A stretch of DNA of 64,000 bases from Octopus vulgaris (lineage: Eukaryota): positions 35,278,001-35,342,000 of the forward strand of contig OX597824.1 in NCBI GenBank assembly GCA_951406725.2, read 5' to 3'. Below are positions 2,806 through 56,060 of the stretch, in pieces (positions within the stretch are counted from its first letter, which is position 1; each line of letters opens with the position of its first letter). Below the pieces are notes generated by a model that was not told where the DNA came from, searched no databases, and saw only the letters and a program-made list of their open reading frames with translations. Both the position numbers and the translations under genes were made by a program.

Positions 2806-3016
2806 GTTAATCCAAACAAGAAAACACAGAAAAAAACACAACAACGCGAGGACGTGGAACAATTAAAGTATTATTTGACGCTCAGGAAAGAAGGGAAGGA
2901 GGGTTTAACGTTTCGAGCGGAGCTCTTCGTCGGAAACAAAGGAAAAGGAAAGATCCCGAGAAGGGAAGGCAGAGGAAAAAAATATTTTTGCTGGTGGTGC
3001 TCAAGAGATCACATGT
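2806..3016 (-). mobile_element. Short Penelope-like pLTR remnant containing a minimal hammerhead
   Basis: Flanked by (TA)n on both sides; 3' part (ttcctgagcgt..aataatac...aac-TATA) is homologous to 3225-3315. Confidence 0.65.
2903..2937 (-). ncRNA. Minimal type I hammerhead ribozyme motif (core variant CCGACGA)
   Basis: gttt-CCGACGAA-gagc tcc gctc-GAA-ACGT-T-aaac: stems I and II pair, palindromic stem III. Confidence 0.65.
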
Positions 3017-3069
3017 TGTATATATATATATATATATATATATATATATATGATTTATATCATATATAT

Positions 3070-3314
3070 GGAAAGAAGAGGTGTATTCCCTTGCAGGAAA
3101 AACATAAGAGAATTTGTTAATCCCAACACATTTTCTCTCTCTGATTTTTTGTTTTTTTCATTCTTTCTCCTTTTTCTTCTTCTTAATCCTTTCTGTTGAA
3201 GAGCATAGGCTCGAAACGTAAAAGACTTTTCCATTCTTCCCGAGCGTTGAACTAATACACCTGCTTGTTGCTCCTACACCTGTCTTCATGTTTTGTCTTC
3301 TGTAAATATGAACT
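3070..3314 (+). mobile_element. Short Penelope-like pLTR remnant containing a minimal hammerhead
   Basis: Flanked by (TA)n; hammerhead motif followed by a 3' end homologous to the 2806-3016 element. Confidence 0.65.
3189..3224 (+). ncRNA. Minimal type I hammerhead ribozyme motif (core variant CUGUUGA)
   Basis: cttt-CTGTTGAA-gagc atag gctc-GAA-ACGT-A-aaag. Confidence 0.65.
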
Positions 3315-3688
3315 ATATATATATATATATATATATATATATATATATATATATATATATATATATATATATATATATATATATATAAAATAATGTACAT
3401 TTAAAGCACAAAGAGAAATTACCAATAACAGGCAATTTCTACACGCTAGGAGATAGAACTACTGAAGACCACAGAAAAATTTAAGCAATTTCAAAGGGAA
3501 TGAAACATAAAAACTTTTACCTTGTTTTTACTGTTATACCTTTAGGTTTCGGATATATATATATATATATATATATACATATATATACATATACATATAT
3601 ATATATATATATATATATATATATATATATATATATATATATATATATATATATATATATATATATATATATATATATATATATATGT

Positions 3689-3811
3689 GGAGGCGCAATG
3701 GCCTAGTGGTTAGGGCAGCGGACTCGCGGTCGTAGGATCGCGGTTTCGATTCCCAGACCGGGCGTTGTGAGTGTTTATTGAGCGAAAACACCTAAAAGCT
3801 CCACGAGGCTC
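3689..3811 (+). mobile_element. tRNA(Arg)-like SINE head, 3'-truncated (octopus OR-type)
   Basis: tggcctagtggttaggg A box, gactcgcg with TCG at the anticodon position, ggtttcgattccc B box; matches head of the 40503-40865 copy. Confidence 0.85.
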
Positions 3812-4230
3812 TGTGATTTAAAATTACAGTAATGTTATTATTGTAATTTCGACACATGATTATGCTTGGGACGCCCGGAACCTGACACGTTGATTAATTT
3901 AATGAAATATACAACGTTTACACAGAATATTCAGAAAAATCTAACAAGAATTAATTGTATTCCACTCTGACGAAGCGCCCACGCACGGCTGTTGCCGAGC
4001 AGAATTCAACTGTATGATAATTATAAAGTTCTTCTTTAATGGTTTTTGAATATAAACTCAGCAACAATGTTGTTATCTACTATTAAGGCATGTTATCCTC
4101 CATCCTCATGTTATATTATCCTTGTACTAATCTTACGTAAAGAGGAGTCCCGCGTGTGTATCTAGCCTTGAAGTATTCCTTGCTGTAGGATACCATGCGG
4201 TATATAACTGTGTATATATATATATATATA

Positions 4231-52426: not shown

Positions 52427-52800
52427 GGTCTAAGCACTCAATAATTACTTAAATGTGTTTTACAATAGAATGCTGTCCAGACATTGTGTACATTAAAATA
52501 CTTGATTTATATACTGTAAAGTCTTCAGCTATCTAATCTTTCGTCTCATATCAGAAGGATCTGAAATATTATTAGCGTTGCCTCTTTTTCATCAAATTAA
52601 TAAACAGAAAGGAATCATGGCCATCATTATTTTGAAACCATTTCAAACAGTAGCCAACGGTTTGATTTTTGTTTTAACTTAGACCAAACATACGCATGAA
52701 ACAGTTCTCTTTCAGTTTCTGTAAGAATAATGAGAAATACCTGGTCACATAGAATATCATTTCGCTCTGAGTATTCCCTGACAAATTGAGTATGCTTATT

Positions 52801-53182
52801 TCTTAGTATTTGAACTGTTAGAGTTATTTTCGCAAATTATCCACTACAACCCTTAAGTAAATAGTATTTTCTTAAACAATAGAGCCACTTATTTCGGTTA
52901 GTGACTTATTCACGAATACACCAACACTAGCGCCGCTCTGGGAACGCACAAAAGCCCTTTTAAGAGTTATTTACTTTGAATTGTTATTATCTCATATCTG
53001 ATTAACCTGTTATTACGTACCATGCTTCACGGTTTTAGTATACATACCTTATTAGTATTTCTTCCCAAGTTCTACATACTCTTGGAACGCATTAAAGTCT
53101 TTTTCGGAGGTACTTTATTTGATTTCTTACTATTGGGTAACTGATTTCATGTTATTACATAACCGACTTCACAATTTGGGTA
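52801..53182 (+). repeat. Old dispersed repeat with diverged ~143-bp internal tandem units
   Basis: 52801-52858 matches 63941-64000; ctct.ggaacgca..aaag...tgttattac...cttcac occurs at 52936 and 53079. Confidence 0.6.
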
Positions 53183-53335
53183 TTCATAAATTATTGGGAA
53201 TTCCTAAAAACAAGATCTATGTAAGACAGTTCGGTATTCTCTGTAAATGTACAATGTGGTTTTAGAGTGAGATCTTGGCTGCTATTTTCAGCATGGCGTT
53301 ATCTCTTAGATACCCTAAATTATAATTTTAATATA

Positions 53336-53727
53336 TCTATCTATATATATAAAGCTGAAGTTGTCTGTGTATGGCAGGTTTGGTAGCCTTCAACTAACAC
53401 TATCTCCTCCGAGGCCCTGCGGCGCATGTTGACCAAAATTGAGAGTATGATAGAAGAAGGCTTGCTCTTCATTCCGTAGAAGATAAAATACAAATCGGAC
53501 CATGTTAAGACCAAAAATTATTTACATCAAAAAGGTGATTTTTTCTATGAAAATCCCTATTTTTTACGATTTTTTGACTACTGTGTCACCATTTATCGGT
53601 GTATTTCAACCAGAAAAATGTTCACTTAAAGAGAATAACAAGCTACATAATGCAAAATTTTTACTTTTCGAAAATTCCAATTCTAAAGGGTCGCAACAAA
53701 CCTGAGCAACGCCGGGCAATACTGCTA
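53336..53727 (+). mobile_element. Non-autonomous Helitron
   Basis: 5' A|TCtatctatatatataaa; 3' ctgagcaacgccgggcaatactgcta running into (TA)n (terminal G of CTAG missing). Confidence 0.72.
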
Positions 53728-53762
53728 TATATATATATATATATATATATATATATATATAT

Positions 53763-56060
53763 GTTTTTAGTTTAGAGTACCATATATATATTTTTAGTTA
53801 TATGTGACCATATATATATTTTTAGTTATATAGTTTAGGCTTTAATTATAGTTGGTATTTAATTGGTATTTCTTTGTTTTGTATTTACTTAATATTTTAT
53901 TGAGTGTGGGAATGAATATTAGTGTATATATCGAGTTTGTACGTATGTATATGTATGTGTGAGTGTGTATATGGTTATGTTTGTGGGTGTGTGTATATAT
54001 GTGTGTGTATTTGTGTGTATTGTGTATGAAAGGGGTTTTATCTTTATCTTTATATTTGTATGTATGGACTTCATTATCATGATTAGTTTAATAAGTATTT
54101 TGTATGTAGGTATGGGTGTGAATGTATGTATGCGTGTGTACAAGTGTAAGTATAGATGCGGTAGTGTATGAGTGCTATGTAATTGAGTGTGATTAATTAT
54201 GCACTTGTATACATGCAAGTTTTGAATGTCTGTGTGATTGCACCCGTCTGCGTGTACACACTCATTTTTTTATATATATATTAATATCTATATGAGTTTT
54301 CGTTTTTTATGGTTTTTTTAAAGAATTTGTAGAAAGGTTTGTATATTCCATTCATAATTTTTTAATTTACGTTTGTTTACTACGCTCAAAGAATTTTATA
54401 TTCCATTCATAATTTTAATGACGCTGTTTTTACGTAGCGCAAATTATTTTTATATGTTCGGTTCCATGGTAACGTAATTTTTGTTTATTGTAATAACGGA
54501 TAGTGTTAAAATTCACTTCAAAATTTGATACTGATTAGAAGGTATGTCTATTTTTCTCCTTTTGTTAATCTTGTTACTTATGATAATCTGATTACTTATG
54601 GAGTATTTTATATATCGTATTATGTGTAGAAATGTTGTTTTTCTTTTGTATGTTTATGTATGTGTGAATGTGTGTGTGTGTGCGTATTTGCTTGTATCGA
54701 GTTTTGTACGTATGTATTTGTATGTGTGAGTGTGTATATGGTTATGTTTGTGGGTGTGTGTATTTGTGTGTATTGTGTAAGGGGTTGTATCTTTATATTT
54801 ATACATGTATGTATGGATTTTATTTATCATGATTATTTTAATGAGAATTTTTGTATGTAGGTATGGGTGTGTATGTATGTGTGCGAGTGTACAAGTGTAA
54901 GTGTAGATTTGGGAGTGTATGAGTGCTTTGTAATTGGGTGTGATTATTTATGCACTTGTATACATGTAAGTTTTGAATGTGCGTGTGATTGCACCCGTCT
55001 GCGTGTACACACTATTTTATATATATATTAATATATATATGAGTTTTCGTTTATCATGGTCGTTTTATTAAAGTTTGTTTCTATCGAGATTTGTACGTAT
55101 ATATATGTATGTGTGAGTGTGTATATGGTTATGTTTGTGGGTGTGTGTATATATGGGTGCGTATTTGTGTGTATTGTGTTAGGGGTTGTATAGTTATATT
55201 TATACTTGTATGTATGGATTTCATTTCCATTCATAATTTTTTAAAAAACGTTTGATATCCATGAGCAAAGAATTGTTCGGTTTTCTTTTGAGTGTTTATG
55301 TATGTGTGAATGTGTGTGTGTGTGTGTGCGATTGTTTGCGTAATTTATTTATCTGTATGGGTGTGGGTGTTTATATATTGGTATATATCGTGTTCTGTAT
55401 GTATGTGTATGTATATGTATGTGTGAGCGGGTATATGTATATTGTTTATGAATGAGTGTTGTATGTGTGTGTGAGGAAGTATGAATAAGTAATGTGTTGA
55501 GTGTATGAGCATGTGTGTGTATATATAGTTTATTTTTTGTTTTTTGTTTTTTGTTTTTTGGTTGTTTGTTTTTTGGTTTTTGTTTTTTGTTTTTTGCTTG
55601 TTGTTTTTTGGTTTTTGTACATTTTAAAATATGAGAACTTTTATAATAGGTTTTTATATTCAATTGTTTATAGGGTTTATTTTAGATTATTTTAGATTAT
55701 ATATTGATTATATATAGATTATATATAGATTATATATAGATTATATATAGATTATATATTTTTATTTTCATTGATAATTTTATTATTTTATTATTTTAAA
55801 TTATATTAAATTATATTTTAAAATATTGATATTTTTAGATCGAAAATCCACCTGAAGATTGTCGGTAGCAGACATGAAACAATTGTTGTGGCGGTTTATT
55901 TAATTTATATTAAAATTTTATGTATTGATTAAGTCTTTTCTTGTTTGGTTTTAAAATAGTGGTTTTGTCTCGAATTATATTATATAATATTTTACTATAA
56001 AATTGGATTTAACCCTAAATCTGATTTTTCCCTGTAAATTTGGATTCATTCCCTAATATT
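53763..56060 (+). mobile_element. 2.3-kb non-coding Penelope-like element with internal block repeats and a 3' hammerhead
   Basis: Strong T/G skew; block starting tatcgag.tttgtacgtat at ~53928, 54694 and 55082; TA-rich microsatellite both sides; 3' end homologous to 4231-4603. Confidence 0.62.
55848..55891 (+). ncRNA. Minimal type I hammerhead ribozyme; predicted cleavage after GUU (55887)
   Basis: ccac-CTGAAGA-t tgtc ggtagca gaca t-GAA-ACAATTGT-T-gtgg. Confidence 0.85.

Follow-up and report, generated by a model that had tools for sequence, protein, structure and literature searches.

A 64-kb stretch of Octopus vulgaris DNA (the window) carries several hammerhead motifs close to (TA)n microsatellites, which raises the question of what kind of element left them there. 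For Penelope-like elements (PLEs) of the Hydra and Neptune clades, including those of Octopus, published work describes hammerheads of this form, a (TA)n target, and inverted copies of which only one end has a tail. Solo minimal hammerheads and opposite-strand pairs 100–700 bp apart have also been described (Cervera and de la Pena, 2014, PMC4209133), and Octopus families of the Hydra and Naiad clades with a (TA)n preference have been listed (Craig et al., 2021, PMC8557442). With good confidence, the motif-bearing repeats are read here as likely 5′-truncated 3′ pseudo-LTRs of at least five PLE families, likely inserted by target-primed reverse transcription at TA repeats, one of which (family G) has its hammerhead blocks in the order S-G-C (SGC) and is likely of Naiad type.

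Type I Hammerhead Motifs and Their Controls

Five type I motifs have their C3 at 2933(-), 3193(+), 10562(+), 39143(+), and 55852(+), all at the places given by a sequence-only reading of this DNA, which had called them complete; that word is too strong for the first two, which carry the core substitutions U4C (at 2932) and A6U (at 3196), respectively. The palindromic or near-palindromic stem III described in the same reading was borne out, its letters being ACGT at 2933(-) and again at 3193(+), ACAGCTGT at 10562, ATGATCGT at 39143, and ACAATTGT at 55852. Stem I of the 39143 motif pairs only with a bulged G, and the 55852 motif has a U.U at the base of stem II. Two further motifs had been described as partial: one (4301) is indeed the 3′ half of a hammerhead of the 55852 family, whereas the other is a lone CUGACGA core (3967..3973, +), around which partner blocks were looked for and none found.

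Chance matches in AT-rich, microsatellite-rich DNA could in principle produce such motifs. A type I descriptor loosened until all five matched, and so tuned on these motifs, gave its 5 matches against a mean of 0.38 and a maximum of 4 in block-wise dinucleotide shuffles (at least 5 in 0/200), an excess that had been proposed as a check; with an intact core required as well, 3 matches stood against 0.02, and 0/200 shuffles were as high. The stricter descriptor, written first, recovered three of the five motifs plus one chance-like match at 25186 (4 against 0.27; 0/100 shuffles). Chance is favored by the fitting of the descriptor to these motifs, by the match at 25186 and by the proneness of loose patterns to false matches (32/32 metagenome matches of the wider pattern described below were GC-rich), but the shuffle controls, fold z-scores, and repeat copies speak against it, as does agreement with published tables of PLE hammerheads, and we give it next to no weight as an account of the motifs. 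For D, F, and G the repeat copies and the controls already refute it, whereas it could still explain the core at 3967. In Rfam, none of the five motifs was matched at gathering score, and the best 150 of 301 matches by E-value were to microsatellite-driven miRNA or snoRNA models.

Cleavage sites lie 101, 93, 165, 37, and 185 nt before (TA)5 in the five type I motifs, against a background in which (TA)5 follows within 200 nt for 13.5% of window positions. The motifs thus stand shortly upstream of a TA-abutting 3′ end, as had been claimed; in family G the hammerhead blocks are 248 nt before the TA tract.

Families With Type I Hammerheads

The proposal of at least four dissimilar families also holds up, with A (2933/3193), D, E, and C/F being unrelated. 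Family A is present as a remnant at 2806..3018 (-) with a minimal type I hammerhead of Neptune-like shape (by eye), in which U4C is accompanied by an extra A after A9, and as a second, divergent copy at 3070..3313 (+) with its 3′ end at (TA)37. By eye the motif matches that of the Acropora digitifera Neptune element (Cervera and de la Pena, 2014, PMC4209133), although both copies, unlike the coral motif, carry a core substitution and the likeness is one of motif. A scan of bacterial genomes with the A pattern gave three matches. Family E is a remnant flanked by two TA tracts (38978..39257, +; fold z = -2.4), whose hammerhead has a 59-nt helix II and a weak stem I.

The 3′ end of family F (55848..56072, +) consists of the hammerhead, a 64-nt tail, and then (TA)22. 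The hammerhead is Hydra-clade-shaped (by eye), and its lowest-energy dimer is the hammerhead dimer fold with one extra pair. An inverted 64-nt tail lies at 4231..4294 (-; 89% identity to 55993-56056) beside a forward, tail-less copy at 4301..4601 (+; 74–76% identity to 55873-55976), which was truncated inside the hammerhead and ends at (TA)n. Telomere-repeat priming was considered for F and dropped, the hexamer being present 21 times in the window. Upstream of F is a non-coding T/G-rich body with internal duplications (53763..55847, +; 49% T, 6% C), whose membership in F is assumed.

Several of these features recall Hydra-clade PLEs. F has a U after A9 and before G12, as in members that include Hydra-1_Obim from Octopus bimaculoides (PMC8557442); D (by eye), E, and F have the 4-bp palindromic stem III arms of that clade; and the window motifs resemble its members in standing ∼100–200 nt before the 3′ end, in their (TA)n preference and in their inverted, 5′-truncated copies. 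A (TA)n bias and a canonical type I hammerhead, both Hydra-clade traits, are present, but the bias is not diagnostic because it is common to Naiad and Neptune elements. The RT/EN signature of the Hydra clade comprises DKT, RWK, and a CxCX5C linker and lacks CCHH. In contrast to Hydra-1_Obim, the window families have different sequences and no ORF was seen in them, and their helix II, at 86 nt in D and 59 nt in E, far exceeds that of every Hydra row, where loops measure 3–10 nt. The longest helix II in the table of Craig et al. (2021, PMC8557442) is that of a spike-moss PLE, whose stem has 9 bp and whose loop has 34 nt.

A Many-Copy Family With a Long Helix II

The D remnant occupies 9908..10831 (+), its 5′ limit being assumed and reads covering parts of 10345-10827. 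Its hammerhead (10559..10669, +; fold z = -5.3) has an intact core, a helix II of 86 nt (31 pairs), an 8-nt palindromic stem III and a 3-bp stem I, with cleavage predicted after 10666; in the minimum-energy fold, stem I slips into the core. Reads were compared for D only, in 4 of 20 matching sequencing runs, three of which, with three organism labels, contained 919, 537, and 156 D contigs, representing many divergent copies. Read cover is heaped at the 3′ end, with a summed depth in run X1 of 90,000–328,000 over 10555-10806 against 2,700–19,400 over 10366-10491, and loose ends in X1 and X6 place (TA)n directly 5′ of truncated D copies. In X1 and X4 the letter that predominates at 10651 cannot form its helix II pair unless the partner changes too. 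Among the matches listed, no RNA run contained D.

The D pattern had no match in a metagenome scan, and a wider long-stem pattern found 32 metagenome loci that were rejected as chance, all being GC-rich and none combining a fully paired stem III with an allowed cleavage base and stem I; a viral scan gave two matches, both lacking the upstream core. The long-stem-II forms singled out in the sequence-only reading are represented by a long helix II that is a family feature of D, many-copy and found in three organisms. An 86-nt helix II looks undescribed, though long-stem cases may stand in Lunse et al. (2017) or in the supplements of Eckert et al. (2023). Family D is a many-copy hammerhead family missed by standard descriptors, so descriptor-based hammerhead counts in such genomes are too low.

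Truncated PLEs or Other Non-Coding Elements

Within the window A, C/F, and G are each present twice and E once; most copies are decayed, and a dispersed repeat with strong 5′ truncation is shown for D only. Inverted 3′-end copies of which just one end bears a tail, an arrangement previously described for PLEs, occur in C/F and G, and none were seen for D or E. Work published on PLEs suggests how such copies might arise: a full-length element would supply the RT and, to nick TA repeats, a GIY-YIG nuclease, cDNA would start near the RNA 3′ end at either of two alternative sites, leaving a tail or no tail, and its synthesis would mostly end early, giving 5′ truncation. Type I hammerheads with a palindromic stem III may cleave as dimers or with the aid of a protein.

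Pfam domains of RT or GIY-YIG were absent from 407 of the 805 stop-free window segments (those of at least 48 aa and higher complexity), and a motif search of the window gave no convincing match. With no such remnant among the segments and motifs searched, no family is tied to a PLE ORF with its telomerase-like RT and GIY-YIG endonuclease, an absence that is expected for truncated copies. An ORF at 56260-57095, whose motifs we take to resemble a restriction-like endonuclease, was rejected as the missing PLE nuclease; it had no PDB or Pfam match. The published Hydra-1_Obim and Naiad_Obim match none of the window families, and no short word taken from A, D, E, F, or G was found in the supplement of Craig et al. 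(2021), although words split across lines could escape notice.

Alternatively, certain families (F and its 2.1-kb body, G, and D) could be ORF-less, non-autonomous elements mobilized in trans by PLE proteins, for which published non-autonomous PLE derivatives provide precedents. The 2.1 kb before F, which are T/G-rich, duplicated within themselves, devoid of frames, and bounded by (TA)n, and ∼650 nt of T-rich DNA upstream in D fit this idea, but autonomous Hydra and Naiad consensi also have long U-rich 3′ UTRs and the 5′ limits are provisional; we hold it as a tentative alternative, well short of even chance. Its mechanism is common with that of truncated PLEs, the sole difference being whether an ORF lies upstream.

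A retrozyme-like origin, also suggested in the sequence-only reading, fares worse. Non-LTR retrozyme monomers, spread by small circular RNAs freed by two tandem hammerheads, share with the window repeats a type I hammerhead, a lack of coding capacity and a relation to PLEs (Cervera and de la Pena, 2020, PMC7229834; Li et al., 2026, preprint), and solo monomers have been published. The tandem hammerhead units that define them were not seen in any of the 145 tandem-repeat rows of the window, and no joint was listed for D in the four runs, where contigs show presence and not absence. As the 3′-weighted cover and the one-sided-tail inverted copies fit PLE insertion, retrozyme monomers are an improbable source.

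Truncated PLE ends are therefore preferred. Anatomy and literature back the earlier link to PLEs with (TA)n as target, which is already published and hence not new. The “dense radiation” that had been proposed does not follow: PLE remnants make up 7.8% of the window, in agreement with the published Octopus vulgaris average (6.83% PLEs, in 190 families), so no special radiation is indicated.

Family G and Possible Permuted Hammerheads in Naiad Elements

A further hammerhead-block family, G, was overlooked in the sequence-only reading and lies partly beyond the coordinates it covered, with C3 at 1236(-) and 2554(+) within the spans 1018-1380 and 2481-2757. Copy 1 (2481..2757, +) has its 3′ end at (TA)n (2758-2805) and a decayed SGC motif (H17 2509, G12 2524, C3 2554) with the core substitution G5U, a stem III of 4/6, a stem I of 8/8, and an enclosing helix of 12/12. 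Copy 2, a forward, 5′-truncated copy with a 3′ tail of ∼35 nt (1018..1309, -; 87% identity to 2481-2772), stands against an inverted, tail-less family G 3′ end (1299..1380, +) that adjoins (TA)n at 1380-1422. Its SGC, or non-circularly permuted, motif (1185..1287, -) has an intact core, with G12 at 1266, cleavage predicted after 1281, a stem I of 8/8, a stem III of 5/6, a helix II of 3 bp, and an enclosing helix of 11/12. The SGC pattern appeared in 0/1000 shuffles, and any non-circular order in 31/1000. Between the two copies of the window, stems I–III differ by no compensatory substitution. Read as type II, G would have no stem I, and that reading was rejected.

The block order S-G-C with a full core, the short linker from stem I to II and a predicted additional helix between the opposite flanks of these two stems recall the type-SGC and type-CSG hammerheads of Eckert et al. 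(2023, PMC10085705), from which G differs as a candidate ribozyme in an animal repeat with a weak helix II. Published non-circular hammerhead permutations are almost all from environmental sequences, with none reported from animal genomes; the SGC arrangement of G looks undescribed, though eukaryotic permuted examples may stand in Lunse et al. (2017) or in the supplements of Eckert et al. (2023).

Family G combines a (TA)n bias with the lack of a canonical hammerhead, both Naiad-clade traits. It resembles Naiad PLEs in its inverted copies and tail and in the (TA)n preference that these have in Octopus, and the cephalopod consensi in the SGC order and similar block spacing (by eye). Naiads have an N-terminal GIY-YIG, a CxC domain, and a C-terminal RT; in G no N-terminal EN/RT frame was seen, and the short words searched gave no match to a Naiad consensus. 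Naiads have been reported to lack canonical hammerheads, some being marked only “HHR_core” or “HHR_half_core” (Craig et al., 2021, PMC8557442). By eye, the reversed block order, with other stem letters, is present in five of eight published Naiad 3′ ends. We consider it somewhat more probable than even that Naiad-type PLEs carry hammerheads, many of them with the cyclic order reversed (cephalopods SGC, nematodes CSG) and forming pseudoknotted monomers where other PLEs have palindromic dimers, with G as the local example. Cleavage of the SGC motif of G would then take place in such a monomer and, given a helix II of only 3 bp, would probably be slow.

The S-G-C pattern may alternatively be a conserved non-catalytic fold, such as a site of protein binding or RT initiation, or a dead relic, to which we assign a substantial chance, a little below even. 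Helix II of G is a G-C plus two G.U, and G8/A9 would be tied up in this helix by a competing, stronger slipped pairing of 5 bp (-4.6 kcal/mol); by eye, Naiad_Obim/Ovul have a helix II of 2 bp and Naiad_Esco has none, and a lizard PLE has been published to insert in vitro without hammerhead cleavage. Against this, in four different sequence sets the core, GAAA, and UH line up exactly with stems I and III, both nematode Naiad ends have a 5-bp helix II (by eye), and slow cleavage is known from published work to persist in hammerheads with a short or absent helix II.

If Naiads do carry catalytic hammerheads, scrambled block order is likely why one PLE branch was thought to be ribozyme-less. The argument that PLEs can dispense with the ribozyme, or host it as a parasite, has drawn on the published statement that Naiads lack canonical hammerheads, which would be corrected. 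Non-circular RNA permutations would then extend from environmental sequences to animal chromosomes, and animal genomes would harbor, in large numbers, a ribozyme topology whose reported examples have so far been near-exclusively environmental.

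Type I Hammerhead Motifs and Their (TA)n Context

The five type I hammerhead motifs claimed by the sequence-only reading are all present in this AT-rich, microsatellite-rich animal DNA, with core position C3 at 2933(-) and 3193(+) (family A), 10562(+) (family D), 39143(+) (family E) and 55852(+) (family F). A first descriptor returned three of the five plus one chance-like match (four vs 0.27 in shuffles, a count reached in 0/100), and a relaxed descriptor, loosened so as to admit the remaining two motifs, returned exactly five vs 0.38 (0/200). Because the relaxed descriptor was tuned, the count from its intact-core version, three vs 0.02, is the safer figure. 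Rfam detected 0/5 motifs. The association with (TA)n also held, as all five predicted cleavage sites lie 37-185 nt upstream of a (TA)5, vs a background of 13.5% of window positions with (TA)5 within 200 nt downstream. Two motifs carry core substitutions, U4C and A6U; according to Perreault (2011), U4C and a change at A6 lower hammerhead activity, and U10.1-U11.1, found in the family F hammerhead, is tolerated. Two partial motifs had been proposed besides, of which that at 4301 is the 3' half of family F, while 3967 is a core on its own. At 34784-34830(+), GAAA and a short stretch resembling a palindrome come after two core words arranged as a 13-nt tandem; stem I and nearby TA are lacking, and the site is possibly a decayed hammerhead.

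Anatomy and Density of Probable Penelope-Type Elements

At 4231-4294, the terminal 64 nt of family F recur in inverted form (89% identity), adjoining a forward F copy whose start falls within the hammerhead; this forward copy runs to (TA)n and lacks the 64-nt tail. The tail itself, at 55982-56056(+), resembles two imperfect 35-38-nt units, each with CCCTAA at its end; this hexamer, the reverse complement of the telomere repeat, occurs often in the window, at 21 sites. Inverted 5'-truncated copies and a one-ended tail are the layout of Penelope-like elements (PLEs) according to Craig et al. (2021), and Frangieh et al. (2024) link the tail to two internal reverse transcriptase (RT) start sites and AT-rich cleavage. 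By eye, Hydra-clade PLEs in the published supplement share the hammerhead layout of F and have 4-bp stem III arms similar to those of D and E, and family A is like the Acropora Neptune motif; the A pair also fits the opposite-strand pairs of Cervera and de la Pena (2014). Three Octopus PLEs, Hydra-1_Obim, Naiad_Obim and Naiad_Ovul, are listed with a (TA)n preference. Counting against a PLE reading, neither RT nor GIY-YIG was found in 407 of the 805 stop-free segments of the window or by motif search, and equality with a published consensus was found for no window family. The Penelope-like assignment is backed by element anatomy and the literature and is likely.

If these are PLE copies, an autonomous PLE would supply RT and GIY-YIG, TA repeats would be nicked and cDNA primed near the RNA 3' end, early cDNA stops would leave truncated remnants, and template switches would leave inverted copies. 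For the type I motifs, cleavage would take place in dimers formed by their palindromic stem III; the lowest-energy F dimer is predicted to be the hammerhead dimer fold plus one extra pair, stem I of D is predicted to slip into the core, and a hammerhead dimer fold is predicted for neither A nor E. The alternative that the elements are retrozyme-like, also put forward in the sequence-only reading, was rejected, as tandem hammerhead units were not seen.

PLEs make up 6.83% of the O. vulgaris genome, in 190 families (published supplement). Elements cover 4,343 bp of the window, or 4,983 bp (7.8%) with family G, on assumed 5' limits for D and F, so that density is ordinary and the proposed dense radiation is not borne out. 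Other repeats include a presumed SINE at about 3687-3812, which points to octopus as the presumed host. A likely non-LTR retrotransposon is represented by its broken C-terminal part at 56260-57095(+), which shares 56% identity with P0001 over 69% of the query and has a CCHC finger and a putative restriction-like endonuclease motif. At 57477-57818(-), a frame with weak Pfam matches to three zinc fingers of the C2H2 type is probably the terminal portion of an RTE-type LINE. Long inverted repeats at 14517-14792 and 6628-6828, with below-threshold miRNA-model matches, are probably MITE-like or inverted repeat copies, and 185-bp tandem duplications at 28863-29231 and 46426-46872 have one SINE-like unit in common.

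Long Helix II in Families D and E

The long stem II form suggested from sequence was upheld in D, a many-contig family whose 86-nt helix II insert is predicted to fold with 31 pairs (z = -5.3); the 59-nt insert of E has a weaker predicted fold (z = -2.4). Contigs matching 10240-10845 at 80% likeness numbered 919, 537, 156 and 15 in sequencing runs X1, X4, X12 and X6, respectively, which come from four studies with three organism labels, X1 possibly being the source sample. Summed depth in X1, which is not copy number, was 90,000-328,000 over 10555-10806 vs 2,700-19,400 over 10366-10491, a profile that 5' truncation would produce, and loose contig ends show (TA)n immediately 5' of copies that are truncated, at 10662 in X1 and at 10609 in X6. 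The helix apex is bridged with at least 31 letters on each side in two of the 32 pieces listed (X1 record 1, X12 record 13). No joints across D are listed for the four runs, so no short-stem form was seen, contigs being unable to prove absence.

Among 11 variable helix II positions in X1, X4 or X12, five keep the pair, three are unpaired and three would each, taken singly, break a pair. As four of the five pair-keeping changes are C-to-T giving G.U, this variation is weak support for helix II; at 10593 the variant letter is in the majority and re-forms a Watson-Crick pair, and the change at 10651, the majority in X1 and X4, breaks one. Loose ends in X4 at 10603-10620 mark a subfamily with a different apical part, and the tip of the long stem is thus variable. 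Separately, X6 record 27 bears eight clustered T>C changes at 10587-10602, five of them absent from the other three runs. Such a cluster would be consistent with A-to-I hyper-editing on an antisense transcript, the RNA nature of the X6 run being a guess, but the record is one contig of low depth (2.4), and error or a divergent copy may also explain it.

The longest helix II in the portion of the published PLE tables examined reaches a 9-bp stem with a 34-nt loop, and no long form was found described in the literature searched, which covers Lunse et al. (2017) through a review. With its 86-nt helix II, family D represents a new but modest variant.

A Permuted Hammerhead Motif in Family G

Family G, whose permuted hammerhead the sequence-only reading had missed, came to light when every core word in the window was listed. 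Its copies at 2481-2757(+) and 1018-1309(-) are 87% identical, and an inverted, tail-less 3'-end copy at 1299-1380, belonging to the latter, adjoins (TA)n. The motifs (1185-1287(-) and 2503-2605(+)) are of type SGC, a non-circular order of the blocks S, G (GAAA) and C (CUGAUGA), in which the cleavage triplet precedes GAAA by 15 nt and GAAA precedes CUGAUGA by 30 nt. Eckert et al. (2023) described types SGC and CSG, almost entirely from environmental sequences and with no report of them in animal genomes. An intact-core scan of the six block orders gave one match, SGC at C3 1236(-); of 1000 shuffled sequences, 31 held some non-circular order and 0 matched the SGC criteria, which had been fixed after the motif was seen. 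At 1236(-), pairing is 8/8 in stem I (slid controls 3-6), 5/6 in stem III and 11/12 in an enclosing helix (slid controls 6-8), with 3 bp in stem II; the second copy, 2554(+), has G5U, stem III 4/6 and an enclosing helix of 12/12. With its non-palindromic stem III, the SGC motif would adopt a monomeric fold containing two pseudoknots. Helix II is modeled as G-C plus two G.U pairs, and a competing slipped register of 5 bp would tie up G8/A9, both of which count against activity. Hammerheads with short or no helix II cleave slowly but measurably in published work.

Probable Relation to Naiads

Craig et al. detected no canonical hammerhead in Naiads, and eight families are marked 'HHR_half_core' there. 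Eight Naiad 3' ends were read by eye, with names taken from file order and four chosen for that mark, and five show reversed cyclic block order. Naiad_Obim and Naiad_Ovul, mutually near-identical, are SGC (stems I 6, III 5, II 2 bp), as is Naiad_Esco (I 6, III 7, II absent); the CSG order is seen in two nematode ends, Naiad_Parc (I 6, II 5, III 12) and the element that precedes Naiad_Hpol (I 6, II 5, III 11), each with a 10-13-bp helix enclosing block C. The reversed order was not seen by eye in Naiad_Omin or the element before Naiad_Obim, the reading of Naiad-3_Dst being ambiguous. G, Obim/Ovul, Esco and the nematode pair each have their own stem letters, with the pairing register, as judged by eye, kept. 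Because this architecture is common to both, G itself is fairly likely to be a Naiad. No paper linking Naiads or PLEs with permuted hammerheads was found in the literature searched, including the accessible part of a 2026 retrozyme preprint. The five-motif finding is a correct catch of known biology; the part worth following is the permuted hammerhead of G, apparently present in published Naiads as well.
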